A stretch of 64,000 nucleotides of DNA from Candidatus Omnitrophota bacterium (lineage in GTDB: Bacteria; Omnitrophota; Gorgyraeia; Zapsychrales; Fredricksoniimonadaceae). Of this stretch, positions 2,950-50,269 are shown piece by piece. Made by a program: the position numbers and the translations under genes. The first letter of the stretch is position 1, and each line of letters begins with the position of its first letter. The notes under the pieces are model-generated. The model was not told the DNA's origin. It saw only the letters and a list, made by a program, of their open reading frames with translations, and made no database searches. Location: assembly GCA_903861305.1 (NCBI GenBank), contig CAIOTT010000049.1, forward strand, positions 88,246 through 152,245, in the 5' to 3' direction.

Positions 2950-5900
2950 GTGCCACGTATGAAAACCATTATTTTTTTCAAAAAAGCATGCGGCCAGCGC
3001 CGCCCCATCGTGCTGTTTGTCCTTTTATCCTTCCTGTTGACCATCGGGATCGGCCCGGCCGGGTCGGCACGCGCTCAGGAGGCCTTTCAACTCCCGCAAC
3101 CCGGCACCCGGGTCAGTTTAAGCCCCTCTTTTATTCCGCCGCTGCTTAAGGGGGTTAAAGTTTATCCGCAGGATCCTTTCCGGCTTGATTTTATTTTGGA
3201 TGGCGGGGAGAGGCGACCTGCCGGATCTTCTCTGCATGATGATGCCACCCGCTTGATCAAATATTTCCTCGCAGCGATCACCGTCCCTGAAAAAGACCTT
3301 TGGGTGAACCTCTCCCCATATGAAAAGGACCGCATTGTTCCCGATGCCTTTGGCCAGACCGAGATGGTCCGCGATCTTCTGGCGCAGGATTATCTGCTGA
3401 AGCAGATCACCGCGTCCGTCACTGATCCCGAAGGGCAGGCGGGCAGGGAATTCTGGGCCAGGGTTTACGCTGAAGCCAGGGAGCGTTTTGGTACAGCCGA
3501 CATCCCGGTCGACACCTTTAACAAGGTTTGGATCGTCCCGGAGAAGGCCGTTGTTTACGAGACTAAGGATGCGGCGTATGTCGTGGAATCCAGGTTGAAG
3601 GTCATGCTGGAAAGTGATTACCTGGCCCAAGAGAAAAGCGTATCATCGCCACTCGCACCAGTGCCGGGGCAATTATTGCCCTCCCCCTTGTGGGGAGGGA
3701 ATGGGAGGGGGGCAGATGTCGCCAAAAACATCCTCCGTGAGATCGTCATCCCCATCCTCGAAAAAGAAGTCAATGAAGGCCGGAACTTCGCCCACTTGCG
3801 CCAGGTTTACAATTCCCTGATCCTGGCCGTGTGGTTCAAGGACAGGATCAGGTCAAGCATCTTCGGCAAAGCCTATATCGACCAGGACAAAGTCGCCGGT
3901 ATCGACATCAAGGACAGGGCTGAAAAGGACAGGATCTGGGCGCAGTACGTCGAATCCTTCAAGAAGGGGGTATATAACTTCATCCGTGAGGAAAAAGATG
4001 CGGTTTCGGGTGAAATGATCCCGCGGAAGTATTTTTCGGGCGGGATGCGCCTTGAGAATGTCAGGGAAGTTATTGTCCTTGCTCAAGAGGCGCAGCTGTC
4101 AGGGGAAGTCCCGGATCACGCCATGATCGTCCGTGCCGATATGTCAATGACCGCTGATCCCGGGATCTTCGCCAAGCCAGAGTTGATAATTGGAATTCCA
4201 GCGGAAGAAGGCATTCATTTTGAAAGACAGCGGTTGTTAAAAGACCCTGACTGGGAATTTATTAAAAGTCGAGGTGTCGATGATTTTGTATTTGGACTTG
4301 CGATGAGGAACATAGATAGGACCGGCGCTGTCCCCTTTGGGTTGAAACCATCAAAGGAAGGGCGGATCATGAATGTTGATCAATTTGAATTGATCCGCAG
4401 GGACTTTGAAAGGATCCTTAGAGAAAAAAATGGAGGAAAGAAGGAAATAACGATCTATCAATTTGGATTGGGACGAAAATTCCTGGAGACGGAAGACATC
4501 CTGAATGCATTGCAGGCGGCATTTGAAGGCCAGGGGATACTGCCTGCGCAGAGATCCATCCCGGGGACAATTCTTCCGGATGCGCAGGATCACGTGGTGG
4601 ATGCGGCTGAGAATGGGGAAGGCTCAGGCTTTGAAACAGCCCAGAAGCAGCAGCGTGAACGCGTCAGACGCAAACAGGAAGATCTGATCAAATACGCCCG
4701 ATCGCTTGCCGCCCGGTTCCCTCAATATCCCTGGCTGGCATGGGAAAGCGCGGCGATCGTCCCGTGGGGTGAAGTTGTCCGTGATACTGAACGAATGGAG
4801 CCCGATGGGCCTGTTATTCAGGACACAGAATATTTTTCATTAGAGAACCGCTGGAATTACTGGGCCAATCAGTTGGATGCGCGACGCGTGTTCCTGGACA
4901 TGCTGGCAGGATCGCTGGTGTCCATGGAAGGCGTCTCCTTTCGGGATGTCCTTGAAAAGGCGCATTCGGACCTTATCCTGGGGGAAGGGCAGGACTCTCC
5001 GTATCGCCCTGCTACCCACAAGAGTTTCTCTGCGGACAATGATCTTGTGAATATTGCCACGACCATGCGACTGTCTGTGCGCGGCCTGGAGCGCCTGAAG
5101 ACAGAATTTGGACTATTCGTGCCGCAGATAAAAGGACATACGCTTAAGCCGAAGTCCCTTTTCCCGACGATATCCTCAATATACTTAACAATGATGTGGC
5201 TTGGGTCATATGATGAGTTTGAAGCAACGAACTTTACGTTCCGGTTCGGGAACCATTCTTTAGTCATGAATTTTATCAATGCGACCCTTCGTCTTTGCGG
5301 ACTGAGCGGTATCCGGAATGGCCATTTTGATTACGATATACTTTGGGACAATGGGTTCAAAGGAAATCGTGATAAGGCTTTGGCTTATGTATCGGCTGGA
5401 CTTTCCAGGTTGGTTGCAGAAGCTGATCGCCGCAAGGCTGATCCATCCCAACTGGGTGAAGATGCCGTTGTCATGGCGCTCTCCGAGCAAGAGATCGCGA
5501 AACTTGAAACGCTTTATCCGGAGTATGATTGGCGCAATGCCGCTGTGGTCGTTTGGCCTGAATTGACGCGCCAGGCTGGTCAAAAGATAAAGAACAAGAA
5601 TCAAATGAACTATTTCGGGAATCAGGTGGTCGTCAGGAGAGAGTTTTTACATTTGGTACGCGACATATTGTCCGGTGATCTGGATACGAAGACGTTTATC
5701 GCGGCAGTCCAACGGATCCATACCTTATTATTAACAGCCACGGGTCCCTATGACCCTTCCTCGGAAGACCTTCACGAGAAGAGTTCGTCCTATCTTGAGC
5801 AGATCAAAGGCAAGTTGAGGGATGAAAGTTGGGCGCGGGCAAGATTGCAAATTATGCAAAATGACCTGGGATCGATCTTCAGCCGGGATGTCCTGACGGG

Positions 5901-6390
5901 GCCAAGGAACCGTATCGTCTCATTGATCGCCAGGTTTTATGCTGACCTTATCGTTGAACAGCGCAATCTTTTCCCGAAGGGAAATCATTCATGGGCCATG
6001 CAGCTCGTCAATACCATGCTGCGGCTTTATGGCCTCAAGGGCATTCCTCACGGGTTTCTTGATGAATTGATCAGGTATGATGAGTTCAAGACAGATGTTC
6101 CCGCAGAGATCGTGGCCCTTGTAAAAGAAGCGAATAAGAATGTTCAATTTGATGAGGCCTACAAAGATCCCGCCATGGAAGAAAAAGGCGGCATCGACTT
6201 GACCCGCGATACGATGCGCCTCAAGGTCAACAGCGACGGCCAGGGGGCCCGATTCAACTTTGATCCTGCCATGGTCCGGCGCCTTGAGAGCGCTGCGGGC
6301 ATCACCCCGGTCATCATCGATATCTGTCCGATGACAACATCGGTGCCGGCGTTCCTGGGGAGCAAGAACGGCCTTTCCGAGACAAGATAA
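2950..6390 (+). CDS. Member 1 of a large secreted-protein paralog family: signal peptide, conserved N-terminal domain, tandem GNHS...LRLxGL repeats, conserved C-terminal GGIDL domain
   Basis: The 1146-aa ORF starts at GTG 2950 or ATG 2959. The signal-peptide-like N-terminus ends ...GSARAQEA. Residues 44 to about 370 align with the N-termini of the ORFs at 25721, 40823 and 46658 (LIKYFLA.LTVPEKDLWVNLSPYEKDRIVP...FNKVWIVPEKA...LKVMLESDY...EKEVNEGRNFA.LRQVYNSLILA.W...IPRKYFSGG). The last ~80 aa (GIDLTRD...FDPAMVRRLESAAGITPVIIDI) align with the C-termini of the paralogs. Confidence 0.8.
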   Translation: MPRMKTIIFFKKACGQRRPIVLFVLLSFLLTIGIGPAGSARAQEAFQLPQPGTRVSLSPSFIPPLLKGVKVYPQDPFRLDFILDGGERRPAGSSLHDDATRLIKYFLAAITVPEKDLWVNLSPYEKDRIVPDAFGQTEMVRDLLAQDYLLKQITASVTDPEGQAGREFWARVYAEARERFGTADIPVDTFNKVWIVPEKAVVYETKDAAYVVESRLKVMLESDYLAQEKSVSSPLAPVPGQLLPSPLWGGNGRGADVAKNILREIVIPILEKEVNEGRNFAHLRQVYNSLILAVWFKDRIRSSIFGKAYIDQDKVAGIDIKDRAEKDRIWAQYVESFKKGVYNFIREEKDAVSGEMIPRKYFSGGMRLENVREVIVLAQEAQLSGEVPDHAMIVRADMSMTADPGIFAKPELIIGIPAEEGIHFERQRLLKDPDWEFIKSRGVDDFVFGLAMRNIDRTGAVPFGLKPSKEGRIMNVDQFELIRRDFERILREKNGGKKEITIYQFGLGRKFLETEDILNALQAAFEGQGILPAQRSIPGTILPDAQDHVVDAAENGEGSGFETAQKQQRERVRRKQEDLIKYARSLAARFPQYPWLAWESAAIVPWGEVVRDTERMEPDGPVIQDTEYFSLENRWNYWANQLDARRVFLDMLAGSLVSMEGVSFRDVLEKAHSDLILGEGQDSPYRPATHKSFSADNDLVNIATTMRLSVRGLERLKTEFGLFVPQIKGHTLKPKSLFPTISSIYLTMMWLGSYDEFEATNFTFRFGNHSLVMNFINATLRLCGLSGIRNGHFDYDILWDNGFKGNRDKALAYVSAGLSRLVAEADRRKADPSQLGEDAVVMALSEQEIAKLETLYPEYDWRNAAVVVWPELTRQAGQKIKNKNQMNYFGNQVVVRREFLHLVRDILSGDLDTKTFIAAVQRIHTLLLTATGPYDPSSEDLHEKSSSYLEQIKGKLRDESWARARLQIMQNDLGSIFSRDVLTGPRNRIVSLIARFYADLIVEQRNLFPKGNHSWAMQLVNTMLRLYGLKGIPHGFLDELIRYDEFKTDVPAEIVALVKEANKNVQFDEAYKDPAMEEKGGIDLTRDTMRLKVNSDGQGARFNFDPAMVRRLESAAGITPVIIDICPMTTSVPAFLGSKNGLSETR

Positions 6391-25596: not shown

Positions 25597-25635
25597 AAAG
25601 GCCTGTTTGGGGAAACTCAAACAGGCCTTTTTTCA
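25597..25635 (+). terminator. Rho-independent terminator after rpoD
   Basis: Stem aaaggcctgtttg / caaacaggcctt followed by tttttca. Confidence 0.65.
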
Positions 25636-25720
25636 TGCCTCCCGATTTGGCACTGATAATAAGTATATGTTATCTTTTAATCCAGGTGGACGCAGTTTGT
25701 GCCAACAGGGAGGGGAGGCG

Positions 25721-27418
25721 TTGGATTTAAGGCGGATTTCACAGAGATCCTTTGCGTGTGCGCTGACACTGGTATTTATGGTGTCGGATGTGAGCGTTTA
25801 TGCGCAAGGGGTGATCCAGTTGCCGCCTCCAGGTACGCGCCTGGCGTTAAGCCCGGTTTTTGTCCCGCCTGTGCTCAAGGGTGTCAAGGTTTACCGCAAC
25901 GATCCGTTCCGTTTTGATTTTATCCTTGATAAAGGTGATGCTAAAGCAACGGATGAGCAGGTTAAAATCGATTCTACGCGTCTGATCAAATATTTCCTCG
26001 CCTCCCTGACCGTTCCCGAAAAAGACCTCTGGGTCAACCTGTCCCCTTATGAAAAAGACCGCATAGTACCCGAGGCGTTCGGCCAGACAGAAATGGGCCG
26101 CGACCTGCTGGCGCAAGACTATATCCTGAAACAGATCACGGCGTCGGTGATCTATCCCGATGAAAAAGTGGGCAAGGAATTCTGGGACAAGGTTTACGCC
26201 GAAGCGCTGAAGCGTTATGGAACGACCGATATCCCCGTGGATACCTTCAACAAGGTCTGGATCGTCCCGCAGAAGGCGACGGTCTATGAAAACAAGGACG
26301 CCGCCTTCGTGGTCGAGAGCCGATTGAAGGTTATGTTGGAAACAGATTATATGGCCACTGCTCGGGCGGACATAAAGTCCGCCCCTACAACGCAAGCAAG
26401 TGACATATCGAGCGTAGGGGCGGACCTTGTGTCCGCCCGTGATGAGATCGCCAAGAACGTCCTGCGTGAAATCATCATCCCCATCCTCGAAAAAGAAGTC
26501 AACGAAGGCAAAAACTTTGCCACACTGCGCCAGGTCTACAATTCGCTCATTCTTGCAACATGGTACAAGCGCAAGGTCAAGGCCGGCATCATGGGCCAGG
26601 CGTATGTTGACAAGCAAAAAACGGGCGGGATCGATATTGCTGACAAGAATGAGAAGGAAAAGATCTGGTCACAGTACGTTGAGGCGTTCAGGCGGGGGGC
26701 GTATAATTTGATCAAAGAAGAGGTTGATCCGGGGACACAGACAATGATCCCAAGGAAGTATTTTTCAGGTGGAACAGATCTGGCCATGGAGGATAAGTTC
26801 GAGGTAAAGACCGTTGATCCTGAAGGGTCTCTCAACGTACAAAGAGGAGAGCTGTTTGTTGTTAGTACTAAAGACGAGGTTCTCCCGCCGTCGTGGAGAG
26901 AAACGACCCGTGTCGTCGATGCATTAAATATAAAAACATTTCCGGAGATTGAAAGCAGCATTGGTGTTGAATTGAGATCGGGGCATTGCGTCGTGTCTGT
27001 TTCCGGCATTTCGGGCGTCGGAAAAACAACCTTGATCGACGCGTTAGGAAAATACCTTAGGGGTATGGGGTATAACGTTGCAACGATCAAGGGAGACGAT
27101 TTCCTGAAATACAAAAAAGCGACAGCAGGTTTTTTATTCAAGAAGGTATTTGTCAAGATAGCTTCATTGTTCCCCCGCATATCGAAAGAACGGATCCTGA
27201 AGTATATATTTCAGAATTTCTTTGATCTGGACGCTGTGAATGAGTTTGAACAACAGATCAGCAAGCTGACCGAGCAAGAAAGTATATTATCGTTTAAGAC
27301 CAGAGGAGGGACGGAGCAGGTTTCGTTGGGAAAGGGAAAGAAAGTTGTTTTAGTCGAACAGATCTATGGCCGGCTATTATTCGGGCATTTTTCAAATGTT
27401 AATATACTGTTAGAATGA
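25721..27418 (+). CDS. Member 2 of the secreted-protein paralog family, N-terminal part: signal peptide, conserved N-terminal domain, P-loop NTPase/kinase-like module. Ends at an in-frame TGA
   Basis: The TTG 25721 start gives L-D-L-R-R-I-S..., matching the M-F-x-R-R start of the paralogs at 40823 and 46658. The track's 25607 start overlaps the rpoD terminator. The conserved domain QLPPPGTRLALSPVFVPPVLKGVKVYRNDPFRFDFILD...IPRKYFSGG is followed by a Walker A motif VSVSGISGVGKTTLIDALGKYL. Confidence 0.7.
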   Translation: MDLRRISQRSFACALTLVFMVSDVSVYAQGVIQLPPPGTRLALSPVFVPPVLKGVKVYRNDPFRFDFILDKGDAKATDEQVKIDSTRLIKYFLASLTVPEKDLWVNLSPYEKDRIVPEAFGQTEMGRDLLAQDYILKQITASVIYPDEKVGKEFWDKVYAEALKRYGTTDIPVDTFNKVWIVPQKATVYENKDAAFVVESRLKVMLETDYMATARADIKSAPTTQASDISSVGADLVSARDEIAKNVLREIIIPILEKEVNEGKNFATLRQVYNSLILATWYKRKVKAGIMGQAYVDKQKTGGIDIADKNEKEKIWSQYVEAFRRGAYNLIKEEVDPGTQTMIPRKYFSGGTDLAMEDKFEVKTVDPEGSLNVQRGELFVVSTKDEVLPPSWRETTRVVDALNIKTFPEIESSIGVELRSGHCVVSVSGISGVGKTTLIDALGKYLRGMGYNVATIKGDDFLKYKKATAGFLFKKVFVKIASLFPRISKERILKYIFQNFFDLDAVNEFEQQISKLTEQESILSFKTRGGTEQVSLGKGKKVVLVEQIYGRLLFGHFSNVNILLE

Positions 27419-27433
27419 GATGGGCGTCTTGCC

Positions 27434-27808
27434 ATGGAATCCTGGATCAAGAGGGAGGCGCATAAGAGGGATCTTTCCCCTTTTGTGGTCAAGATCTTTT
27501 CCGGCATTAAGGAGCATTTTCAGGAGACGCAGGAGTTGGTGCAGCTTTCTGGAGGGATCGAAAAATTCGATTTCGTAATTAATACGGACGAAACAGAATT
27601 TCCAACAATAAATAAAGTGAATAATGGCGGTATTGACCTTAATTCAACTCAAATCGACCTAACTAGCAAGGGCAATGGCGATGCTGATAATTTCGATATT
27701 GATCCCGCTTTGCTCAAACGCATGCAAAATGCACCCGGTGTAACGCCTGTCATTGTGGGCATCCATTCTCTGGACAGTTTGCAGCAGTTCCTGGAAATTC
27801 ACCTGTAG
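27434..27808 (+). CDS. C-terminal GGIDL-type domain fragment of family member 2, in the same frame as 25721-27418 and separated from it only by TGA 27416-27418
   Basis: The 124-aa ORF contains NNGGIDLNSTQIDL...NFDIDPALLKRMQNAPGVTPVIVGIHSL, which aligns with the C-termini of the ORFs ending at 6390, 46642 and 50269. 25721 and 27434 are both in frame 2. Confidence 0.55.
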   Translation: MESWIKREAHKRDLSPFVVKIFSGIKEHFQETQELVQLSGGIEKFDFVINTDETEFPTINKVNNGGIDLNSTQIDLTSKGNGDADNFDIDPALLKRMQNAPGVTPVIVGIHSLDSLQQFLEIHL

Positions 27809-27930
27809 CGTGATATATGCGAAGGGCTTTATATAAGTTGATAATATTTCTTATATATGGTATTGTTTTTAAACTGTTTTTCGGGGATTTTCCTTGTTTT
27901 ATTGATAAAGAATTCTCGTGCCAGGGTTTC

Positions 27931-28004
27931 GGGCCTATAGCTCAGTCGGTTAGAGCAGGAGACTCATAATCTCTTGGTCCCTGGTTCGAGTCCAGGTGGG
28001 CCCA
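27931..28004 (+). tRNA. tRNA-Met (anticodon CAT; could be an elongator, or the Ile2/lysidine type)
   Basis: gggcctatagctcagtcggttagagcaggagactCATaatctcttggtccctggttcgagtccaggtgggccca. The cloverleaf is consistent: a 7-bp acceptor stem, a GTTCGAGTCC T-arm, and no encoded CCA. Confidence 0.8.
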
Positions 28005-28038: not shown

Positions 28039-28115
28039 GGACGCATAGCTCAGCTGGTTAGAGCGCTGCCCTCACATGGCAGAGGTCGAAGGTTCAAGTC
28101 CTTCTGCGTCCACCA
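28039..28115 (+). tRNA. tRNA-Val (anticodon CAC)
   Basis: ggacgcatagctcagctggttagagcgctgccctCACatggcagaggtcgaaggttcaagtccttctgcgtccacca. The anticodon loop is ctCACat. The 3' CCA is encoded. Confidence 0.8.
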
Positions 28116-28358: not shown

Positions 28359-29087
28359 GTGGCCGAAAAGAATGTGAAAGACCTTTTGAGGAAGCTTGTG
28401 GCGCTCCAGAAGATCGACGCCGAGGTTTACGAGTTCAAGCGTGCCATCAAGGAACAGCCCGCCCTTCTCGACGGCATCAAGGCCAAATTTGACAAGAAAA
28501 TGACCCGTTATCAGGAGCTCGAGGCCCGCGCCCAGGAGTTGGAGCGCGCCCGCAAGGCCAAGGAACTTGACCTGAAATCTCGGGAGCAGGAGATCGTCAA
28601 GGCCAATGCGGACTTGATGGCCTTGAAGACCAACAAGGAATACCAGGCCAAGTTGTTCGAGATCGAGAACAAAAAGTCGGACAAGTCGATCCTCGAGGAT
28701 GCCATCCTTAAGTTTTTTGATGACAGCGCCAGGCTCGCGGAAGATATGGCCAAAGAGAAAGTTCTTGTCGACGCGGAAGAAAAGATCTACCTGGCCGAGA
28801 AGGACAAGGTGGATGCCGCGGTGAAAGTCCTGCTCGACAAGGTCGCGACCTTTGAATCCCAGCGCAACGACGCGTGCCAGGGGATCGACAAGGCCACGCT
28901 GGCCATGTATGAGCGTCTTGTTGAGAACCGTCATGGCCTGGCCATGGTGCCGATCGTTAATGACACGTGCGGTGGTTGCTATATAAAGCAGACCGCGCAG
29001 ATGCTCAACAAGCTTGAGATCTGTGACGAGGTCGTGCGCTGCGAAACGTGCGCCAGGATCCTTTATCTTGAGAATGTGCTTTCATGA
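28359..29087 (+). CDS. Zinc-ribbon domain protein with coiled-coil region (COG1579 / zf-RING_7 family)
   Basis: Coiled-coil N-terminal region. The C-terminus is CGGCYIKQTAQMLNKLEICDEVVRCETCARILY (C-x2-C ... C-x2-C). Confidence 0.7.
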   Translation: MAEKNVKDLLRKLVALQKIDAEVYEFKRAIKEQPALLDGIKAKFDKKMTRYQELEARAQELERARKAKELDLKSREQEIVKANADLMALKTNKEYQAKLFEIENKKSDKSILEDAILKFFDDSARLAEDMAKEKVLVDAEEKIYLAEKDKVDAAVKVLLDKVATFESQRNDACQGIDKATLAMYERLVENRHGLAMVPIVNDTCGGCYIKQTAQMLNKLEICDEVVRCETCARILYLENVLS

Positions 29088-29557
29088 TCTCCTGGGAGAT
29101 CTTTTCTGACGGGGCCTGCAGCGGTAATCCGGGCCCCGCGGCCATCGGGGCCGTGATCCGCCGGGATGGCGTGATCGTTAAAGAGATATCCGAACCTATC
29201 GGCGTTGCGACAAATAATATCGCTGAATATCGGGCGTTCATCCGCGGGATCGAAGCGGCGCAGGCACTTGGCGCCGAGCAGGTCAAGTTACGCACCGACA
29301 GCGAGCTTTTGTTTTATCAGATCAAAGGCAAGTACAAAGTCAAGCATGTCAATATGAAGCCTTTGTATGAAAAGGCTGTGGCGCTTTTAAAGCGTTTCAA
29401 GAATGTCGAATGCAAGGTGGTCCCCCGGGAGCAGAATCAGGAAGCTGACCGGCTGGCCACATCCGCTCTTAAAAAGAATGTTTTGCAGAACGCAAGCCAC
29501 GACGACCGCCCCGATGTGTTCATCATGGGGGAGGAAAGTCCGAGCTCCAAAGGATAG
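29084..29557 (+). CDS. rnhA: Ribonuclease H (type I)
   Basis: ISWEIFSDGACSGNPGPAAIGAVI...TNNIAEYRAFIRGIEAA...NQEADRLA contains the conserved DEDD catalytic-residue context. The last ~25 codons overlap the 5' end of rnpB. Confidence 0.85.
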   Translation: MISWEIFSDGACSGNPGPAAIGAVIRRDGVIVKEISEPIGVATNNIAEYRAFIRGIEAAQALGAEQVKLRTDSELLFYQIKGKYKVKHVNMKPLYEKAVALLKRFKNVECKVVPREQNQEADRLATSALKKNVLQNASHDDRPDVFIMGEESPSSKG

Positions 29558-29868
29558 CGCACCCAGATAATGCTGGGGACGTTCTGTTTTGCTTACGCAA
29601 ATGCAGGGCGGGCGAATAGAGCCACAGGGACGAACCCCTTCAGTGGGGGGTGAAACGGGCGATCTCTGCGCGGAGCAAGGCCAAATAGAGGAGAGATCCT
29701 GCTGCCATGAAAGTGGCCGGGATGCGGGGCTATCCGTCCCGTTATATCCTCGGGTAGGCCGCAAGAGTCCTGGAGGCAACTCCGGGAGTAAGTTGGATGG
29801 TCGTCCTTTCCGGTCAGCCGCAAGGCTCACCGAAAAGAACAGAACTCGGCTTATGTGGCGAGCGTTCA
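29486..29868 (+). ncRNA. rnpB: RNase P RNA (bacterial type A)
   Basis: The P4 strand GGAAAGTCCGAGCTCC starts at 29533. The 3' consensus is ...GAACAGAACTCGGCTTA. P1 pairing is agaacgcaagccacg (29486-29500) with tgtggcgagcgttc (29854-29867). Both ends are approximate to within ±10 nt. Confidence 0.8.
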
Positions 29869-29919
29869 GCAAAAAGTGAAAAAATGATTTTCTAAAGTTG
29901 AACAAACAAGGAGAAGTAG

Positions 29920-40822: not shown

Positions 40823-43800
40823 ATGTTTATCCGAAGGTTTTTATCATGTTTTGTCTGTTTTTCGTTTGTTTCTACCTGCCTTATCCCTCCTGCTTACGCT
40901 CAAACAGCCTTTAAGTTGCCTCAACCAGGGGCCATGGTAGGTCTTTCAAGTAGTTTCATGCCTGTTGTCTTGAAGGGCGTGCACCTTCATCCTGAAAATC
41001 CGCTTCTATTTGATTTTATTGTAGATGCCGGGGACTCGGGTTTTTCGTTTGAAGGCCCGCAGTTCAAGGCTGAGTCCGAAAGGCTCATTAAATATTTCCT
41101 CGCTTCGCTCACGGTCAAGGAAGGCGACCAGTGGGTAAACCTTTCTCCCTACGAAAAAGACCGCATGATCCCTGAAGACCTGGGGAAGACCGAACTGGGC
41201 CGCGACATGCTGGCGCAGGATTACATCCTCAAGCAGTTGACCGCTTCGCTGGTTTATCCGGAGAAGGGCTTAGGCAAGGAATTCTGGGCCAAGGTGTATG
41301 AGAAGGCCCAGGCACAGTTCGGCACCATCGATGTGCCGGTGGATACTTTCAATAAAGTCTGGATCACAGCCGACAAGGCCCGCGTCCTGGAACGCAACAA
41401 TACCGCTTATGTGGTTGGCGCGCACTTGAAGGTTATGTTGGAATCGGACTATATGGCGGCCGCGCAGTCGTCCGGCGTGGGTAGGGGCGGGTCTGTGACC
41501 CGCCCACTTGACAACGCTCAAGAACTGACCAAACAAGTCATGCGCGACGTCATCATCCCCCAGATCGAAAAAGAAGTGAATGAAGGCAATAATTTCAGCC
41601 AATTGCGCCAGATCTTCTACGCCATGATCCTGTCCACCTGGTACAAGCGGGCCCTTAAAACCGCCCTCCTGAACCAGGTCTACAGCAACAAGTCCAAGAC
41701 CAGCGGTGTCGAGAACGCCGATCCGGGCGTGAAGGAAAAGATCTACGCCCAGTACCTGGAAGCCTACCGCAAGGGCGTGTTCAACTATATTAAGGAAGAG
41801 ACGAACGCCGCCGGCGAAACCATCCCGCGAAAATATTTTTCAGGCGGTTTGGACAGAAATTTGAATGTGGATCAGGCGATGGAAGTGATCGATAAGGCGG
41901 CGGCGGGGGATTCTTTAAAAGGAAAGAAAGAAGCCGTGGTCACTGCTGTAATTGATGCTGCAGAGGCATTTAATACTTTATATTTGAGTGAGCAAGGAGC
42001 GCTTTTACTGAGGTTGATCAGGATATTCAAGAGATCTGATTTTCATTGGGGAATATATAAAACGCCTGTTTCAGTTCGCTTGATCGACGGGCAGGGGGTA
42101 GCGAAGAAGGTCATTACGGTCACCCGTGAAGATTGGCAGAATGGTATTGCCGGCATATCAGATAAGTTGCAACATCTTGTGAGTTTATCAACGGATGTGC
42201 CTTTATGGATGATCAAGCTGAAGAAGTCGCCGTACTCGCAGATATTGTCTGTTGACATTACCCCATTCACTTACGAGGGTCTGGCCAGGGAGTGGAATCA
42301 AGGGCATGTCATATCAACGTATTTGGTCAGCCCGCAGAACAAGGGATTTTCATATCAGATCAAGATAGAGCCTTTACAACCGGACGGGCTTGCAGATAAA
42401 AATAAAAATATTATTTGGGATGCTGGAAGCAAGACGTTGCGGATCTTTCTGGATTACAACACGCCGGTGGGGCAGTTCGACCGGCAGAAGTTCTTTGACG
42501 GGATCATTGCGATGGTCGCGGAATTGCAAAATGTGAGCATCAAGAAAGAACTGGAACACAATAAGACACGTTTGGCGCATTTTTTGGGATTGAATATCGA
42601 GGCGGAGCGCGTTCGTGATCTGCGTGAAAAAAGGGATCTGTTGCATAACAAGACAGGCATAAGACCCGAAGAATTGACGTCAGTTAAGATGGAACTGGCC
42701 CTGGCGGAATTTCAATTCGGTGGCGATGTTGTGGACCTGAGCGATATGCCCGGTCCAGAGCGGCAGGCAGCGGTGACACAAGCGATCCGATATGGGTTGA
42801 TCCCCTTGTTGGCGGCACGTCAGGATGTTCAGGAGGTTTTGTCGCATTATCCGCAAGCATTGTCTGCCAGGAGGGTCGGGCCGGGAGAGGCTAATCAGGC
42901 CGTCCTCTCCGGAGCCGGGGTGATCCTTGTGTCGCCGGATGTTACGGCCAATGAAATCAAAGAAGCCCGGGGATTGTCGTTGCGCGTGAGATATAAACCG
43001 CTTGTTGTGATGGTGACAAAAGATGTTTTGAACGTGGACCGGGAGTCTCTTGATCTGGACGGAAAATACGATGGCATTGATCTGAGATTTAGAGGGAGTC
43101 TCCCGGCAGTATTGGATAAATCCAGTGAGGTAGGAAATCTTATAAAATATATTAAAAGAAAGTCTCCGATACCGATGATCATGATTTCCGGAGATGTGAA
43201 CGACGAGAATCGGGATCGTGTGGCTAATGGGGTCAAGGGGGAATTTCATCTGACATCCATGCGTGCCTTCGATGAATTAGAAAACATTGCGCATACGGCG
43301 TTCCAGCACGATGATGCCATGACAAAAGAGGAAGAGACGGGCGCTGCTGGCAAAATTTCCCCGGAAGCGCAAAATATCCTGGATGAAATAAAAAATTACG
43401 CCGTGATTCCCTTGCAATATTGGCCTTTGGATGTGACCACATGGTATGGTGTGCGCACGGCGCAATTGATCATTAAAGAAGGTTTTGAGGACGATCCTGA
43501 GGCGCTTTCAGCGTTGATAGAGGGCGCGATCAAGAGGAGCGGCGCAGGTTTCTCTGCAGCCAGAATGAAAGATGGGCGATCTCTCCATGATGTTGCCTGT
43601 GAGATCGGGTTGGTGGATCCTTCAGACGGGAATATGAATGTGGGCATGGTGCGTATTCTGGAAAAAATTATATTTTATGGCGACGTCATGTTTCAAAAGA
43701 GTGATTTCGATGAACTTCCGAATAAAGCACATGCTCTGATGGAGAGCAGTAACAGGGATGGAGGGATAACGGTTCCATCAGATCTTTCTTTCAAGGATGC

Positions 43801-46642
43801 AGTCGGTTTGTTGAACCCGATGGAGACGCTGTTTAAGGCATATATCAAATTAGAGCAAGGTTGGAAGTTGATCGATGATCAAATGAAAGCTATTGATGTT
43901 GTAAGTAAGATGCTTGGCATTCAATCAAGGGAGCTTATTGAGAAAATGAAATCGGCCCAATTGATGGAACAGCCGGATGGTCAACCCTTTAAGAAGGCGC
44001 TATTGGAGCTTATTTATCCACTGGGTGATTCTGTCAGGATGGTGGGTATCAAGTCTGAATTCAAGTTTTACGGGACATTGCAGCAGATCGATTTGAAGAA
44101 ATTATATCAGGAGCTTCCTGGGGTTTTCGGGAATAATGCTGCAGGGTTTAATAAATCAGAACAATGGGATGCGTTGATCGCCGGCGCGCACAATGACATT
44201 TATAGCGCGATTGAACAAAGCCGTCGGGGCGAGCTTCAAGGACCCGCGAAGCATCAGGCTGGAGAACCTTCTGATGTTGTGCTCCCGCAAGGGGGAGCGC
44301 AAGATCCGTTGGTCAATTGGTTTGTCACCAGGATCATGTCGCGGTTGAAGTGGTTTATTCAGGGCAACAAGAAGATGATCCTGGAGAATGATGTTGAACA
44401 GCTTGAGGCGCATTTCAAGATCCGGCTCATGGCGAGAAATCCTTCAGAAGCCGATCCTGAGGGCCGGGTTATTTTTGCGCCTGTAGGCAGTTCTAATGAT
44501 GCGGCGCAAGAAAAGAAGGACGCGTCAGACCATCCTGAAATGAACCCTGCATCCCGGCTTTTGCTGCCGTATACAACAACAGAAATGGCGAAATTTCAGG
44601 TCCAGGAAATTTTGCTTGATCTTGATCTTAAGGAGAAAGTTATCCCGATCCTGTTGCGCGACGTCAAAGAGGACGTTCGGGATAATATTTCTTCTGTAGA
44701 AGATAAACAGGCTTTTCTGGTCGCTGTATTGAACTCTGCTTTTAAAGCATACTGGATGAGGCATGCGATCGGTCATCCCGCGGCTGAACTGATTTTTTCC
44801 TTCTTGAAGGAGTTGTCCGGCAATGATGTCAAACGCATGGATCTTGTGCGATCAAAAATGTGGCGGGATCAGTTTTCTGTGTATCTGGGGCGTGTTGCCA
44901 AGAGGATGGTGGATGGGGTGGTCGCTGGTCCTGAAAAAACAAACAAGGAACCCTTGACCCTGAAACCAGGCATGACATTAGAGGATGCCATGTCGGCCGT
45001 GGCTGATATTGTATTGGATCCGGCGGATACTTCAGCGCGTCTTGTGGCGATGGCGGATGAGATAATGAAATTTCTCAACCAGGACGATTTTATTAATTTT
45101 GAAAAGAAAGAGTTCCTTCTGGGTGTTCTTAACCTGAGCAGGGAAGCCCGTGAAGTTTGCCGTTATGAGAACAACTCCACTAAGATGAGCCTTATCGAAG
45201 CGTTCGTTCATAAATTGACGCGTGGGGCCATTGGAAATGTGGAATTGGATCGTTATGTATTGGATCCGGATGAGTTTACACAACAATGGGACAGTGTTGT
45301 CGATGAGCTTCTCGGACCTGCACCTCTTCCAGATCAGCCTAAAAAGAGACCTGGATCCCCGATGTTGACGCCGGAAATGTCCCTGGCGTTGGCGATAGGG
45401 ACGGTGAATGAGGCGTTTCACAGGAAAGATATGTCTTATAATGATTATTTGTTGTTGCTCCGTGATGTAAAGCAGTATGTCACGCATAATATTTCTTCTG
45501 TCCACGACCAACAGTATTTTTTGTTCACGGTTTTACATCAGGGGCTGTCGATGTACGGGTTGTACTGGCATGCAAGATCATCTGCGGCGGCACCCATTGC
45601 TTTATTCCTGAAAGAATTTTCCGGCGACGTTGTTGTGGCAGAGAATATTGTGCGATCAAGGATCAGACAAAACGCGTTAGATAAGCTCCTGGACGATGCT
45701 GTCAGAAGTATATGGAGCGGGATCTTTCTGGAAAAACTTCAGAAGATGGCGTTAGAGCCGCGGGTCCTGGGCGAATTAAATAGGATCTCACAGGTCGCGT
45801 TGGCAGACGGCCCATTTGACGGGAATTCCTGGGTGTGGGGGGCGGCGCAGAAGATCGGGTTATTGAAGATCACCCCAACGGAGTTCCTCGTTGACCTGAC
45901 CATGGCGCGTTTTTTGGATAATGCGATAACCGTTGATGAGAAGGATCGCGGACGGGGGCATATCCTTGTGCCTGGGGAGCAGAGGCTTGTGCCGGAGATG
46001 ACGACGGCGCGCGCGGTGGATCTGGTCGATCAGATCTTCCTTGCTCCCGATGTCACCCCAGGGCGTCTTGTGGCGCTGGTTGATGAAATACGGAGATTCC
46101 TTGGTCAGTCGAGGTTGTTGAGGGATGACAAAATGGAGTTCCTGGAGCATGTATTTTTTAGTAGTGTCGAGACGCGTGAACTTGCCCGAGACAACAAAAA
46201 TACCCGGAAAATGAACGCCATGGCCGTATTTCTCAAGGAACTGTCGGGTGGTGTTATTGGGGAAGCGCAGATGGACCGTTACGCGCTGTCTCGTAATATG
46301 CAGCCCGATTATTATGGGGACCCGGATGCATTTAAATGGCAATGGCGCAAGGTTGTGGATGACATTGTGAGATCAATGGAGCAATCAGATCTGGCGCAAG
46401 ATACGCCTGCAGCTAAAGTCAACGGTGGTATCGACATGAATGGGAAGAAGATGACACTTGATGTGGCACGTGAAGGCAAGGGCATTGAGATGAAACTCGA
46501 CCCGGCGATGGTCGCGCGGTTCGAGCGCGGCGATTTTACGGGGGTCGTGCCGGTCATTCTCAAGGTCACGCCCATTGCCAGCCCTTTGCCGCTATTGGGC
46601 ATGGGCACGTCCATGGACATTCAAGATAAGATCAGCGGGTAA
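40823..46642 (+). CDS. Member 3 of the secreted-protein paralog family: 1939-aa giant protein with signal peptide, conserved N-terminal domain, a long lower-GC central region with internal repeats, and conserved C-terminal GGIDL domain
   Basis: Signal peptide MFIRRFLSCFVCFSFVSTCLIPPAYAQTA. The N-terminal domain aligns with the paralogs (KLPQPGAMVGLSSSFMPVVLKGVHLHPENPLLFDFIVD...IPRKYFSGG). Four internal repeat units share the consensus [FL]xKELSG / hxKLTRG (...ELIFSFLKELSGNDV, ...PIALFLKEFSGDVV, ...AMAVFLKELSGGVIG, ...IEAFVHKLTRGAIG). C-terminus VNGGIDMNGKKMTLDV...LDPAMVARFERGDFTGVVPVILKV. Confidence 0.8.
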   Translation: MFIRRFLSCFVCFSFVSTCLIPPAYAQTAFKLPQPGAMVGLSSSFMPVVLKGVHLHPENPLLFDFIVDAGDSGFSFEGPQFKAESERLIKYFLASLTVKEGDQWVNLSPYEKDRMIPEDLGKTELGRDMLAQDYILKQLTASLVYPEKGLGKEFWAKVYEKAQAQFGTIDVPVDTFNKVWITADKARVLERNNTAYVVGAHLKVMLESDYMAAAQSSGVGRGGSVTRPLDNAQELTKQVMRDVIIPQIEKEVNEGNNFSQLRQIFYAMILSTWYKRALKTALLNQVYSNKSKTSGVENADPGVKEKIYAQYLEAYRKGVFNYIKEETNAAGETIPRKYFSGGLDRNLNVDQAMEVIDKAAAGDSLKGKKEAVVTAVIDAAEAFNTLYLSEQGALLLRLIRIFKRSDFHWGIYKTPVSVRLIDGQGVAKKVITVTREDWQNGIAGISDKLQHLVSLSTDVPLWMIKLKKSPYSQILSVDITPFTYEGLAREWNQGHVISTYLVSPQNKGFSYQIKIEPLQPDGLADKNKNIIWDAGSKTLRIFLDYNTPVGQFDRQKFFDGIIAMVAELQNVSIKKELEHNKTRLAHFLGLNIEAERVRDLREKRDLLHNKTGIRPEELTSVKMELALAEFQFGGDVVDLSDMPGPERQAAVTQAIRYGLIPLLAARQDVQEVLSHYPQALSARRVGPGEANQAVLSGAGVILVSPDVTANEIKEARGLSLRVRYKPLVVMVTKDVLNVDRESLDLDGKYDGIDLRFRGSLPAVLDKSSEVGNLIKYIKRKSPIPMIMISGDVNDENRDRVANGVKGEFHLTSMRAFDELENIAHTAFQHDDAMTKEEETGAAGKISPEAQNILDEIKNYAVIPLQYWPLDVTTWYGVRTAQLIIKEGFEDDPEALSALIEGAIKRSGAGFSAARMKDGRSLHDVACEIGLVDPSDGNMNVGMVRILEKIIFYGDVMFQKSDFDELPNKAHALMESSNRDGGITVPSDLSFKDAVGLLNPMETLFKAYIKLEQGWKLIDDQMKAIDVVSKMLGIQSRELIEKMKSAQLMEQPDGQPFKKALLELIYPLGDSVRMVGIKSEFKFYGTLQQIDLKKLYQELPGVFGNNAAGFNKSEQWDALIAGAHNDIYSAIEQSRRGELQGPAKHQAGEPSDVVLPQGGAQDPLVNWFVTRIMSRLKWFIQGNKKMILENDVEQLEAHFKIRLMARNPSEADPEGRVIFAPVGSSNDAAQEKKDASDHPEMNPASRLLLPYTTTEMAKFQVQEILLDLDLKEKVIPILLRDVKEDVRDNISSVEDKQAFLVAVLNSAFKAYWMRHAIGHPAAELIFSFLKELSGNDVKRMDLVRSKMWRDQFSVYLGRVAKRMVDGVVAGPEKTNKEPLTLKPGMTLEDAMSAVADIVLDPADTSARLVAMADEIMKFLNQDDFINFEKKEFLLGVLNLSREAREVCRYENNSTKMSLIEAFVHKLTRGAIGNVELDRYVLDPDEFTQQWDSVVDELLGPAPLPDQPKKRPGSPMLTPEMSLALAIGTVNEAFHRKDMSYNDYLLLLRDVKQYVTHNISSVHDQQYFLFTVLHQGLSMYGLYWHARSSAAAPIALFLKEFSGDVVVAENIVRSRIRQNALDKLLDDAVRSIWSGIFLEKLQKMALEPRVLGELNRISQVALADGPFDGNSWVWGAAQKIGLLKITPTEFLVDLTMARFLDNAITVDEKDRGRGHILVPGEQRLVPEMTTARAVDLVDQIFLAPDVTPGRLVALVDEIRRFLGQSRLLRDDKMEFLEHVFFSSVETRELARDNKNTRKMNAMAVFLKELSGGVIGEAQMDRYALSRNMQPDYYGDPDAFKWQWRKVVDDIVRSMEQSDLAQDTPAAKVNGGIDMNGKKMTLDVAREGKGIEMKLDPAMVARFERGDFTGVVPVILKVTPIASPLPLLGMGTSMDIQDKISG

Positions 46643-46657: not shown

Positions 46658-49600
46658 ATGTTCTTCAGAAGGATCATGTCAATTATTGTTTGCCTGGCGT
46701 TTATCCTTACCAGCCTGACCCCTTCAGCATATGCCCAGACAGTCTTTAATTTGCCTCAACCCGGCACCATGGTCGATCTTTCCGGTGCTTTTGCGCCGGC
46801 TGTTCTGAAAGGCGTAACCATCCATCCCGCGGATCCTTTGTTGTTTGATTTTATCGTCGATAACGGCCAAAGCGGGCTTCAGGGCCAGGCGCTGACCGAT
46901 GAGACCACCAAGCTGGTGAAATATTTCCTGGCGGGGCTGGCAGTCCCTGAAAAAGACCTTTGGGTCAACCTGTCGCCGAAAGAAAATGAGCGCGTCATGG
47001 CGGATGACCTGAGCCGCACGGATGTTGGCAGTGCGATGCTGGCGCAGGATTATATCCTGAAACAAGTGACCGCGAGTTTGATGTATCCGGAAAAAGACCT
47101 GGGGCGCAGGTTTTGGGACGAGATCTACAAGCGCGCTTATGCGCAGTTCGGCAATACCAATATGCCGGTGGATACTTTCAATAAGGTTTGGATCATGCCG
47201 GCGGAAGCAACGGTTTATCAGAACGGGAATGACGCGTTCGTCGGCCGTGCGCAGCTTAAGGTGATGCTGGAGAGTGATTTTGAGGCTGCGAAAGGCGTGG
47301 TCTCCCGGCAGGCGGCTGCCGATATCGAGCTGGCCAAGGGTGTTGTCCGTTCCGTGATCCTTCCTGTTTTGGAAAAGGAAGTCAATGAAGGCAGGAATTT
47401 TGCCCCCCTGCGCCAGGTGTTCCATTCCATGATCCTGGCCGGGTGGTACAAGAATGCCCTCAAGGAAAGCTTGCTCGCCCGGGTCTATGCCAACACGAAC
47501 AAGGTCAGCGGCATCGAGATCCCCGAGAAGGATGCCCGTGAAAAAGTGTACGCTCAGTACATGGAAGCTTACCAGAAGGGCGTGTACAACTATGTTAAGG
47601 AAGAGTTGGACCGCAATACGAACGAAGCCGTGCCCCATAAGTATTTCTCTGGTGGTATCACCGAGTTAAGTGTTGATCCCGGGAAGGCTGATGTGTCACA
47701 GGTGGATTTCAAGGGGGCTTCTACGAAGCAGTCTTATAGATTGGATGTTTCCACAGACGGGGCGCAGGAGTTGAGCCGGGCAGATCAGAAGGTTCTCGAT
47801 GGGGCAAAAACGATCATAGAAAGCTTGTTGACGGAGTCATACCAGAACGGCGATATTACGGATACCGTTTATAAAAATGCCCTTGCGAATACGTACAAGA
47901 ATCTTGTTGAATGGACGCAGGATCCGGATATTTATCGCATCGATCCCAGCATCCGTGCGGCCAATCTTGCGGCGATCCGTGACGGCCGTTGGGATGACAT
48001 TATAGAGGCGTACCGACAGGATATCCTGTTCGGGACAGCCGGCATCCGTGGAAAAGCGGTCCTTTCAGAGAAAGAATTGCAGACATTCAAGGCCGAGGGG
48101 CCCTTGGGGAATTTCCTGAAAGGTCCCAATACGATCAACACCTTCAAACTCTTGAAGACCACGCAGGGCCTCATCAAAATGGCCAGGGAGACGGGCTTAA
48201 AACGGGTTGTCATAGGCTATGACAGCCGTATCGGCGGCGCGGCATTCGCGGACATGATCGCGCGTCTTTTTATTGCCCAGTCCACGCCGGAGCATGAGTT
48301 CAAGATATTCCTTTTTGATGAAGCAAGCCCTTTTCCGGAGCTTTCTTACGGCATAACGACGGATGTGGTGAAAGGCGACATCGGTTTGCTCATTTCTGCG
48401 AGCCACAATCCCGCGGATTACAATGGCTATAAGATCACGCTGGGCAACGGGGCACAGTTGAACCAGGCCAGCAAAAATCAGGTCACGGCGGCCATTGATC
48501 AGGTCAGGAATTCCGACATTGTTATGGCTGCTTCGCTGGCCGACGCAAAACCAGGACAGCTCGTGTGGCTTGGAGGCAGTGAGGCGCTTGAGGGTAAGGA
48601 TTATTACGGGTTCGAGCGCATTGATATGCACTCATTGCATGTTGAACAAGTAAAGAAATTCATCTTGAACAAGGAAGTTGTCGTTGCACATTCCGGTGAT
48701 TTGAAGTTCGGCTTTGCAGCGTTCAATGGCGCGGGATTTAAGGCCGTGCCACGATTGTTGAGGGAGACCGGGTTCACCAACGTCAAGGTTATTGAGAAAC
48801 TTCAGAAACTCGACGGCAGTTTTCCGGCGTGGAAGTTTGGCGAACAACCGGATCCCGGCGACCCTATTTCTGCGGATATTGCTGTGAAGGAGTTCATTGC
48901 AGAATACGGCCAGCAGGTGTTTGATCTGCTGGATGCTTTGTTCGGCACTGATCCTGATGCGGACAGGATGGGGTTGAGCGTCAAGGTTCCCGAGTCCCAG
49001 CAGAAATATTTCGGGAAGTACCGGTTACTTTCCGCGAATGACGTTTGGACATTGTTAATATGGTATCGGTTGTCCATGAAAAAGCAAATGGGTCTGCTGG
49101 AAAATCCTTCTAATCATGCGGTCGCATTCAGCCACGTAACAACAGATGCCATTGAAGCTGTGGCGAAAATGTTTGGCGTCGATGCTATTGGGAAAATGCT
49201 TGATGTGACAGGCACCCTTGAAAAAGGAGATTACCTGGCGGGCCGCAGGACATGGGTTGGGTTCACTTACCTTGCGGATATATTGGAAGATGCGTATCAG
49301 ATGGGAAAGTTCGTTGAAATGCTGGCGGAGGAGTCGAACGGTGTGAGCGTGCAGGGCCATACTAAGGAAAAGGATGGGACGCTCGCCGTGATCCTTGTGG
49401 CTGAAGTTGCGGCGTATGCCAGATCTCAGGGTAAAACTTTGTTTGAACTCCTGGATGATGTCTATGCGCTGATTGGTCATTATGCCACGGCCAACAAGCC
49501 GTTGCCAAGGGTCGGGTCGTTCGAGAAAGCGGCCGGGGTCTCAGAAAAGATCAAGATCATTAAAAGATCCCAGGAATGGGGCACGAAGGCCAATGAGGAT

Positions 49601-50269
49601 GCGCATACGGACCATCCGTTCATGATCGCGGGGAAAAAGGTCCTTGGCGCTGTCGAGTTCGCTTCCGGCCGTATCGATAAGACCCATTACGCCGGTGTTC
49701 CGGATGAAGGGGTTCGTTTCTTTTTTGAAGATGAGCAGCTCCAGCCGGGGGATCCTTTTACCAATAGCCATAATTACATCACGATCCGCGCTTCAGGAAC
49801 GTCACAGGCGCTGCGGTTCTACACACAGATATTTTCCCGGGATGTGAGCCCGGAGCAGAAAGCCAAAAATTATGCTGAGGCTGAGCGCGTCGCGCTTGAA
49901 GCGCAGCGACAGATACTTGAGGAAGTCAACCTTGAGAAACATCTTCCTCCGGTCAGAGCGCAGCTTGAAAGTATTTATGCGCAAAACGAGCCTGTCGCTG
50001 ATAAAGCCCAGGATCTGGGCGGTATCGACCTCGGCCAGGGCAATTACCTCAAGGTCATCGCGACGGGAACGGCGGGCGTCCCGCAATTTGACCCTGCCCA
50101 GCTGAAACAGTTGCAGAAAGACCTGCGCGGGGTCATCCCCGTTCCGGTGGGCGTTCCTGTGCCGGTCAGTGTGCGGCCGCTCCTGGGGCTGGATCCTAAT
50201 AGCGGCAACGAGAACCTCCAGCTGAGCCAGATGGGGCCATTGACGTTTGAGGTCGAACAGGACGCATAA
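46658..50269 (+). CDS. Member 4 of the secreted-protein paralog family, fused to an alpha-D-phosphohexomutase (phosphoglucomutase/phosphomannomutase) domain
   Basis: Signal peptide MFFRRIMSIIVCLAFILTSLTPSAYAQT. Conserved N-terminal domain. Phosphohexomutase motifs: GTAGIRGKAV, the active-site Ser loop SASHNPADYNGYKI, the metal loop GTDPDADRMG and the phosphate loop IRASGTSQALR. C-terminus DLGGIDLGQGNYLKV...FDPAQLKQL...GVIPVPVGVPV. Confidence 0.8.
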   Translation: MFFRRIMSIIVCLAFILTSLTPSAYAQTVFNLPQPGTMVDLSGAFAPAVLKGVTIHPADPLLFDFIVDNGQSGLQGQALTDETTKLVKYFLAGLAVPEKDLWVNLSPKENERVMADDLSRTDVGSAMLAQDYILKQVTASLMYPEKDLGRRFWDEIYKRAYAQFGNTNMPVDTFNKVWIMPAEATVYQNGNDAFVGRAQLKVMLESDFEAAKGVVSRQAAADIELAKGVVRSVILPVLEKEVNEGRNFAPLRQVFHSMILAGWYKNALKESLLARVYANTNKVSGIEIPEKDAREKVYAQYMEAYQKGVYNYVKEELDRNTNEAVPHKYFSGGITELSVDPGKADVSQVDFKGASTKQSYRLDVSTDGAQELSRADQKVLDGAKTIIESLLTESYQNGDITDTVYKNALANTYKNLVEWTQDPDIYRIDPSIRAANLAAIRDGRWDDIIEAYRQDILFGTAGIRGKAVLSEKELQTFKAEGPLGNFLKGPNTINTFKLLKTTQGLIKMARETGLKRVVIGYDSRIGGAAFADMIARLFIAQSTPEHEFKIFLFDEASPFPELSYGITTDVVKGDIGLLISASHNPADYNGYKITLGNGAQLNQASKNQVTAAIDQVRNSDIVMAASLADAKPGQLVWLGGSEALEGKDYYGFERIDMHSLHVEQVKKFILNKEVVVAHSGDLKFGFAAFNGAGFKAVPRLLRETGFTNVKVIEKLQKLDGSFPAWKFGEQPDPGDPISADIAVKEFIAEYGQQVFDLLDALFGTDPDADRMGLSVKVPESQQKYFGKYRLLSANDVWTLLIWYRLSMKKQMGLLENPSNHAVAFSHVTTDAIEAVAKMFGVDAIGKMLDVTGTLEKGDYLAGRRTWVGFTYLADILEDAYQMGKFVEMLAEESNGVSVQGHTKEKDGTLAVILVAEVAAYARSQGKTLFELLDDVYALIGHYATANKPLPRVGSFEKAAGVSEKIKIIKRSQEWGTKANEDAHTDHPFMIAGKKVLGAVEFASGRIDKTHYAGVPDEGVRFFFEDEQLQPGDPFTNSHNYITIRASGTSQALRFYTQIFSRDVSPEQKAKNYAEAERVALEAQRQILEEVNLEKHLPPVRAQLESIYAQNEPVADKAQDLGGIDLGQGNYLKVIATGTAGVPQFDPAQLKQLQKDLRGVIPVPVGVPVPVSVRPLLGLDPNSGNENLQLSQMGPLTFEVEQDA

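Follow-up and report, generated by a model that had tools for sequence, protein, structure and literature searches.

A single in-frame TGA in a modular Omnitrophota gene: a probable young nonsense pseudogene

The window analysed here, a 64,000-nucleotide stretch of contig CAIOTT010000049.1 from a Candidatus Omnitrophota assembly (GCA_903861305.1), harbours a locus in which one stop codon separates two open reading frames (ORFs), 25721-27418 and 27434-27808, that share the same frame on the forward strand. The split locus is probably a young nonsense pseudogene, fixed in the sampled population. It would derive from a single ancestral gene of about 695 codons belonging to a modular family of Omnitrophota, whose members appear to be built from a signal-peptide-like helix, an N-domain of about 325 amino acids (aa), a variable central part (the cargo) and a C-module of about 55 aa. 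The stop is real and reproducible, it interrupts a domain within the cargo, and homologues of this domain run continuously through the position of the stop. The product has presumably lost its function, and the event that created the stop appears to be recent.

The stop codon and the interrupted domain

The original prediction, made from the sequence alone, held that both ORFs lie in one frame with a single TGA between them, and cautioned that a frameshift elsewhere would change the interpretation. Direct reading of the sequence and translation of 25721-27808 in one frame (696 codons) bear out the former and remove the latter concern, as the TGA is the sole internal stop and the number of frameshifts is zero. 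The ATG of the second ORF lies 18 nucleotides (nt) past the start of the TGA, the context of the stop being ...CTG TTA GAA TGA GAT GGG CGT CTT GCC ATG GAA TCC.... That TGA acts as a genuine stop elsewhere in the window, as had also been proposed, was confirmed by its use as terminator in 26 of the 45 plausible genes, which makes it the commonest stop, many of these codons overlapping the start of the next gene (ATGA or GTGA). For this reason the genetic code at the locus is the standard one and the TGA is a true stop, the same count speaking against an alternative code in which TGA is a sense codon (tables 4 and 25). In addition, rpoD and other conserved genes of the window are uninterrupted.

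The nature of the interrupted region emerged when the 170-residue stretch up to the stop (26906-27415) was used in an exhaustive HMMER search, which returned only five proteins beyond the gene's own product. Among these, P0026 (270 aa; E=5.8e-21, 36% identity over residues 11-169) is a stand-alone gene that, on three JGI contigs, adjoins a Bac_transf sugar transferase, and P0027 is a 324-aa protein (E=6e-5). In P0028 (5562 aa, residues ~3400-3640) and P0030 (2806 aa, residues ~2240-2450) the domain is internal to giant multi-domain proteins; further Walker-A-bearing segments were noticed by eye in P0030. The fifth match, P0029, was set aside because only a stretch of ~37 residues at the P-loop was aligned. 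The repaired window sequence was then aligned with P0026, P0027 and the matching regions of P0028 and P0030 (alignment A5). All four homologues read across the stop column uninterrupted, with Arg, Thr, Ile and Arg at that position. In the column after the stop an Asp is invariant (5/5 sequences), and an invariant Arg, which in the window is carried by 27434-27604 within IKREAHKR, is located 11 residues past that Asp. The gap of 15 nt between the ORFs (27419-27433) opens with the Asp codon of the window (GAT, 27419-27421) and contains no in-frame ATG, GTG or TTG. Neither ORF encodes the invariant Asp, since the upstream one ends before its codon and the product initiated at ATG 27434 begins after it.

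The closing motif of the domain could be followed into the downstream ORF. It reads KFDFVINTDETEFP in the window, KFDLILDVNNRENP in P0026 and FDYVVNVNDRRHP in P0027, and this KFD...P motif is placed at offset 48-62 past the stop column both in the window and in P0026. When the downstream piece was compared with the tail of P0027, a shuffle z of 4.3 was obtained (4 of 2000 shuffles as high), the value against the tail of P0026 being 2.3, and BLASTP matched it to P0027 with E=0.004, colinear with the upstream match. The stop thus falls inside the P-loop domain, about 62 residues short of its end. The downstream ORF, to which the original prediction had assigned the family C-terminal domain only, instead begins with the cargo tail (its first ~57 residues), followed by a short linker and the family C-module. 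The companion claim that the locus was once one gene is strengthened by this correction, because the stop interrupts the P-loop domain and the tail of the domain is found in the downstream ORF. It is further supported by the four homologues that are continuous through the stop, and by the presence of N-domain and C-module in one ORF in 51 of the 56 family members where both modules could be placed. The codon of P0026 at the stop column is CGG and not CGA, so it provides no direct support for a one-step change from CGA to TGA.

The cargo shares with P0026 and P0027 the order of its motifs (Walker A, GDDF, a helical insert, hhhhDQ/EQ, NILL-x-D, R and KFD-hh-N..P), although P0026 differs in being a free-standing, uninterrupted gene devoid of the family N- and C-modules. 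As judged from these alignments, the gene under study, P0026, P0027 and the domains in the giant proteins constitute a small, previously unnoticed P-loop domain family with a conserved Asp and a conserved Arg, two residues that could guide functional work.

Regarding the kind of P-loop protein, the best matches of the cargo in searches of Pfam, NCBIfam and PDB were MobB, AAA_16, CbiA, MeaB, APS kinase, PRK, SRP54 and Zeta_toxin, all of them below the curated thresholds and spanning only ~35-50 residues around the P-loop. The APS_kinase model, for example, fell short of its cut-off of 21.1 bits with a score of 18.6-20.3, and PRK of its cut-off of 22 with 16.9, only model positions 1-46 being covered. 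In these sequence and profile searches, no Pfam or NCBIfam model and no PDB chain aligned with the cargo beyond the P-loop region. An AF2 single-sequence model of the homologue P0026 had a pLDDT of 36, too low for use. The cargo is classifiable only as a divergent nucleoside triphosphatase (NTPase) of the P-loop type, for which the designation "kinase-like" is plausible but unproven. Thus, of the cargo assignment made in the original prediction, the Walker A motif and the P-loop character stand, whereas the uridine kinase, PRK or APS kinase type is not established, the matches being sub-threshold. The later motifs of the cargo (hhhhE-Q, ILLE-x-D...R...R and FDFVIN) are taken by us to resemble the Walker B, the lid and the last strand, respectively, of uridine kinase, PRK and CoaA.

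Recurrence of the split and surroundings of the gene

The two products are on record from several assemblies, the upstream one as P0001/P0004 (573 aa) and P0003 (565 aa), and the downstream one as P0005/P0006 (124 aa). A Logan contig, which represents an independent assembly (run ERR4194093), is base-identical to the window over 26580-27977, TGA included. The gene tables of ERZ1426852 (60-kb contig) and ERZ1426828 (174-kb contig) present the same succession of rpoD, a 565/573-aa ORF, a 15-nt gap and a 124-aa ORF. The stop is carried by more than one strain, because the proteins of these ENA/NCBI assemblies show two substitutions relative to those of the window, T->P (GGTDL to GGPDL) and D->Y (KFDFV to KFYFV). 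The D->Y variant, P0006, has lost the Asp of the KFD motif, a residue that is invariant in a three-sequence alignment and conserved in 4/5 sequences of alignment A5; the change is as expected under relaxed constraint, with the weight of a single observation. An intact allele of ~695 aa was not found in a collection of 5.8 billion proteins, where the 90% cluster contains the 565/573-aa forms only, and a word-indexed search of the collection returned only the same split proteins and one paralogue with unrelated cargo.

These data bear directly on the possibility that the TGA is a sequencing or assembly error, the true genome having a sense codon and an intact gene. The source is a metagenome-assembled genome (MAG), and single-base consensus errors do occur. 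Such an error, which was among the options initially envisaged, must now be regarded as highly improbable, because the split recurs in independent assemblies and no intact allele was recovered. The same base is present in the independently built Logan contig, the same ORF boundary is found in two further assemblies (ERZ1426852 and ERZ1426828) that differ elsewhere in the protein, and the site is neither a homopolymer nor a repeat.

The features of the gene and its immediate surroundings are collected in Table 1. The TTG at 25721, already proposed as the start, is credible in view of its strong Shine-Dalgarno (SD) sequence and of the database protein P0003, which begins with MDLRR. Residues 2-25 are modelled as a helix by AF2, A28 and Q29 are almost invariant in a 70-sequence family alignment, and signal-peptide cleavage is predicted between VYA and QG. 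The promoter-like site sits between the gene start and the terminator hairpin of rpoD, which was read directly off the sequence together with its T-run (~25598-25636). On the other side, tRNA-Met (27931-28004) and tRNA-Val (28039-28115) are encoded directly 3' of the split gene. A bacterial class A RNase P RNA (29490-29869, + strand, 144 bits) starts within the 3' end of an RNase H-like ORF (29084-29557).

Table 1. Features of the split gene, with positions in the window
Feature	Position	Strand	Basis or remark
Promoter-like site TTGGCA-18-TATCTT with TG	25647..25676	+	consensus scan only; number of matches near chance
Strong SD GGGAGGGGAGG	25708..25718	+	anti-SD duplex -11.6 kcal/mol; rank 3/41 starts examined
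Start TTG and N-terminal signal-peptide-like helix (MDLRRISQRSFACALTLVFMVSDVSVYA, then QG)	25721..25804	+	translation, family alignment, AF2
Conserved family N-domain, ending at KYFSGG (26756-26773)	25805..26773	+	46-61% identity to three window paralogues
5' part (170 aa) of P-loop NTPase cargo domain	26906..27415	+	HMMER match to P0026, P0027
Walker A GISGVGKTT	27005-27031	+	sequence
GDDF motif	27092-27103	+	sequence
Walker-B-like VVLVEQ	27344-27361	+	sequence
In-frame TGA inside P-loop domain	27416..27418	+	sequence; identical in Logan assembly; R/T/I/R in homologues
Gap between ORFs, 15 nt (GAT GGG CGT CTT GCC = DGRLA), still domain-like	27419..27433	+	invariant Asp is the first codon
Downstream ORF start (ATG, weak SD), 3' part of P-loop domain	27434..27604	+	colinear with P0026/P0027 tails
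Last-strand motif KFDFVINTDETEFP	27563-27604	+	
Conserved family C-module (GGIDLN...DPALL...GVTPVIVGI...)	27620..27805	+	alignment with three window paralogues and P0002; tblastn
Final stop TAG of the presumed ancestral gene	27806..27808	+	sequence reading

The modular family and its broken members

Three paralogues of the split gene are present in the window (2950-6390, 40823-46642 and 46658-50269), which have ~370 aa at the N-terminus and ~50 aa at the C-terminus in common, each within a single ORF, with N-domains at about 3064-4101, 40832-41944 and 46667-47749, respectively. More than 1355 relatives of the N-domain were detected at E<=1e-10, annotated as hypothetical proteins, and those with a source name derive almost exclusively from Candidatus Omnitrophica/Omnitrophota. 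The N-domain has no Pfam or NCBIfam match. Its AF2 model, built from the 70-sequence alignment, is confident (pLDDT 81, pTM 0.79), and a Foldseek search with this model gave no PDB match at E<0.001; the N-domain may represent a new Omnitrophota-specific fold. No description of the family was found in a literature search. The C-module occurs in other proteins too, as revealed by a profile search. The split member possesses both the N-domain and the C-module, family invariants such as KYFSGG included, and lacks an uninterrupted ORF joining N-domain, cargo and C-module.

A scan of 185,579 species genomes, with one genome per species, yielded 79 family loci, nearly all in MAGs of Candidatus Omnitrophota and in several copies per genome, none of which carries the cargo of the split gene or adjoins rpoD or the tRNA genes. 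In a scan of JGI metagenomes, an orthologue with this cargo was equally absent, only a P-loop being matched. The 94 N-domain hits that were classified by script, including the window copy and the Logan copy (L001) of the split locus, comprised 47 with N-domain and C-module in one ORF and 4 more that are intact with slight alignment overhang, 25 that run off contig ends, 13 without detectable C-module and 5 that are split, namely the present locus twice (window and L001), L074, L009 and L030. The cargos found elsewhere in the family include PGM/PMM (window paralogue 46658-50269), HAD, NUDIX, methyltransferase, HEAT repeats and cytidine/MafB19-like deaminase; besides the window paralogue, examples of cargos are provided by P0056, P0099, P0145, P0089 and the gene after P0092. 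It is odd to find enzymes of cytoplasmic type downstream of a signal-peptide-like N-terminus that has an almost invariant A-Q junction, and this suggests exported effectors or a membrane anchor.

Several family members other than the present one are damaged. The locus L074 (3884-5137 of CAIOPG010000008.1, Omnitrophica MAG Umea1p4_bin-199) is a decayed copy in which the first ~200 aa of the N-domain are followed by three in-frame stops and an internal deletion, and then by an intact-looking C-module, and the member at L030 is frameshifted. In L089 (1692-6744 of JGI 3300020745 Ga0207051_1009) the gene is apparently split by an IS256-type transposase (PF00872), the order being a 350-aa N-domain ORF (P0091), the transposase (3017-4309) and an ORF of >876 aa without Pfam hit. 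In L088 (5021-5050 of ENA ERZ27253680 k141_3120948), a G8 tract within KYFSGG shifts the frame, the resulting 347-aa N-only ORF (P0092) being followed by an 886-aa deaminase-cargo ORF in another frame. The 347-aa P0092 arrangement is on record from two assemblies, and the tract may either work as an on/off switch of the slipped-strand kind or reflect an error in a homopolymer. The SGG of KYFSGG is in fact encoded by a G5-G8 run in 12 of the 79 members (G6 or longer in 11 of these), further G-tract sites being L089 2706, L004 6407, L009 5048, L025 239 and L061 5012; the split window member encodes these residues as TCA GGT GGA, with no G-run.

ORFs encoding the C-module only were encountered in mid-contig positions as well, P0012 (L002 5001-5204, 67 aa) and P0014 (L004 5001-5267, 88 aa), both with no partner N-domain ORF directly upstream on their own strand and the latter flanked by two full-length members of the family, which lie on opposite strands. 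They would be either orphan remnants or genuine small genes, and look like remnants. The notion of the C-module as a normal stand-alone gene was considered and rejected, as the profile search had given short proteins only and had missed the known long paralogues; this search was word-indexed and biased to short proteins, meaning that its hit-length distribution does not reflect biology. Other C-module matches, P0007 and P0013, are located at contig ends, and many more on contigs shorter than ~2 kb. Gene breakage is common in the family, which is consistent with the reading of the split locus as a pseudogene.

Weighing the explanations, and comparison with known systems

In the explanation favoured here, a point mutation would have created the TGA inside the P-loop domain of an originally continuous gene, and the mutant allele would have become fixed in the sampled population. 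Candidates for the ancestral codon are those of Arg (CGA or AGA), Gly (GGA), Ser (TCA), Trp and Cys, the homologues having Arg, Thr or Ile at this position. Ribosomes would stop at 27418, giving a product composed of the N-domain and of the P-loop domain minus its last ~62 residues, and deprived of the family C-module. The remaining 129 codons are still open, presumably since the event is recent and not since they form a gene, the locus being a young pseudogene in a family that often loses copies. The nonsense mutation listed among the initial options is thereby preferred, considering the single real TGA, the lack of any repeat or recoding signal at the site, and the breakage of other family members.

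Some points weigh against this explanation. The 129 post-stop codons are open, for which the random chance is estimated at ~0.002 ((61/64)^129), as would be the case if the event were very recent, or if the downstream part were still in use. The intact ancestral state is presumed from distant homologues (20-29% identity in A5; 36% for P0026) and from the family architecture. The comparison with orthologous loci that had been recommended at the outset found no orthologue with this cargo in the 185,579 species genomes or in the JGI metagenomes. Moreover, fixation refers to the sampled assemblies, which may stem from related lake samples of one study. Finally, UGA is the leakiest stop codon in bacteria, and some full-length protein may still arise in this way.

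The open downstream frame would also be accounted for by a tolerated, functional split, in which the upstream product is kept and the 124-aa ORF is translated by re-initiation 16 nt after the stop, freeing the C-module together with a fragment of the domain. Neither ORF is damaged, at least three assemblies annotate the two as separate genes, and the 15-nt spacing between stop and ATG is compatible with translational coupling. This arrangement is nevertheless rather unlikely, because the cut lies within a folded domain and leaves both products without the invariant Asp, and because the SD of the second ORF is weak (anti-SD duplex of -4.7 kcal/mol). The existence elsewhere of N-domain-only proteins (342-376 aa) and of the C-module-only ORFs P0012 and P0014 could be seen as a precedent, but the two N-only cases examined end at an insertion sequence (IS) in L089 or at the poly-G frameshift of L088, and do not correspond to two-gene layouts, while the orphan C-module ORFs have no upstream partner and are remnant-like. 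A sigma-70-like match, TTTTCA-16-TAGAAT with TG (27389-27416), has its end exactly at the TGA, the downstream ATG following 18 nt further on. Promoter-like matches in the region amount to 7 versus 3.5 +/- 2.0 in shuffles, and this site is within chance expectation.

Programmed recoding, that is, reading of the UGA as selenocysteine (Sec) or its regulated readthrough to give the full-length protein, is very unlikely. As in bacterial selenoprotein genes, there is an in-frame UGA, the Sec codon and the leakiest stop, followed by a frame that is open to the family C-terminus, and the stop is stable across assemblies. Unlike in those genes, however, no hairpin resembling a selenocysteine insertion sequence (SECIS) was detected downstream, where the original prediction had advised to look for it: the fold of 27410-27480 (71 nt) has z=+0.61, with 151 of 200 shuffles folding at least as well, and an Rfam scan of 27300-27600 at E<=10 gave only two chance animal-RNA hits (a microRNA precursor and a lncRNA exon). 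The homologues show R, T, I and R at the UGA column, with no Cys or Sec, and no redox motif was seen. The tRNAs encoded in the 64-kb window are Met and Val only, with no tRNA-Sec, and no other in-frame TGA occurs in the three intact window paralogues. Phase-variable (contingency) switching, by which the member would be reversibly turned off and on, had equally been suggested, and it could find an echo in the poly-G tracts at KYFSGG of the 12 family members and in the L088 frameshift recorded in two assemblies. At the site of the stop, TTAGAATGAGATGGG, the change is a base substitution, there is no homopolymer and no tandem repeat in 27000-27850, and the SGG codons of this member contain no G-run, so that a slipped-strand switch is excluded there; given also that reversion of a nonsense substitution is no faster than ordinary mutation, phase variation of this gene is extremely unlikely. 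A further proposal regards the whole family as contingency/effector cassettes switched off and on, and the split not as a pseudogene but as a state in which expression of a secreted P-loop enzyme is kept low by regulation. It draws on the G-runs found at the KYFSGG junction, on the premature stop described here and on the IS insertion in L089. In such a scheme the UGA member might deliver low amounts of full-length protein by readthrough, or two pieces by re-initiation. This proposal is quite unlikely.

As a young nonsense pseudogene, albeit a well-documented one, the split locus would be of little import when taken alone, and its two ORFs would be best annotated as a single disrupted gene instead of a pair of hypothetical proteins. 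It is of value indirectly, in showing that members of a very large, apparently Omnitrophota-specific and uncharacterised family are being lost and broken at a visible rate. Such turnover would be expected for fast-evolving surface/effector repertoires in organisms that are thought to be host-dependent.

Among known systems, the cargo recalls P-loop small-molecule kinases (APS kinase, PF01583; PRK/uridine kinase, PF00485; zeta toxin, PF06414) and SIMIBI NTPases (SRP54/FtsY, MeaB, MobB) in that its Walker A leads into a helix and a strand and then to an acidic residue (GKTT...V.TIKGDD), and departs from them in that its resemblance is sub-threshold and restricted to the surroundings of the P-loop. 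At the level of the family, the conserved ends around a highly variable enzymatic middle, the many paralogues per genome and the N-terminal signal-peptide-like segment are reminiscent of polymorphic toxin/effector families and of type IX secretion system (T9SS) substrates of the C-terminal domain (CTD) type. The resemblance is one of architecture only; known trafficking, toxin and CTD domains were matched neither in sequence nor in structure. The locus itself resembles nonsense pseudogenes of multi-copy bacterial families, with which it shares one premature stop in an otherwise intact frame, intact paralogues in the same genome, and copies in related genomes that bear frameshifts, IS insertions and deletions. 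It differs from them in belonging to an uncharacterised family and in that no intact orthologue of this copy was found. The phenomenon is ordinary, and the family is the more interesting object.

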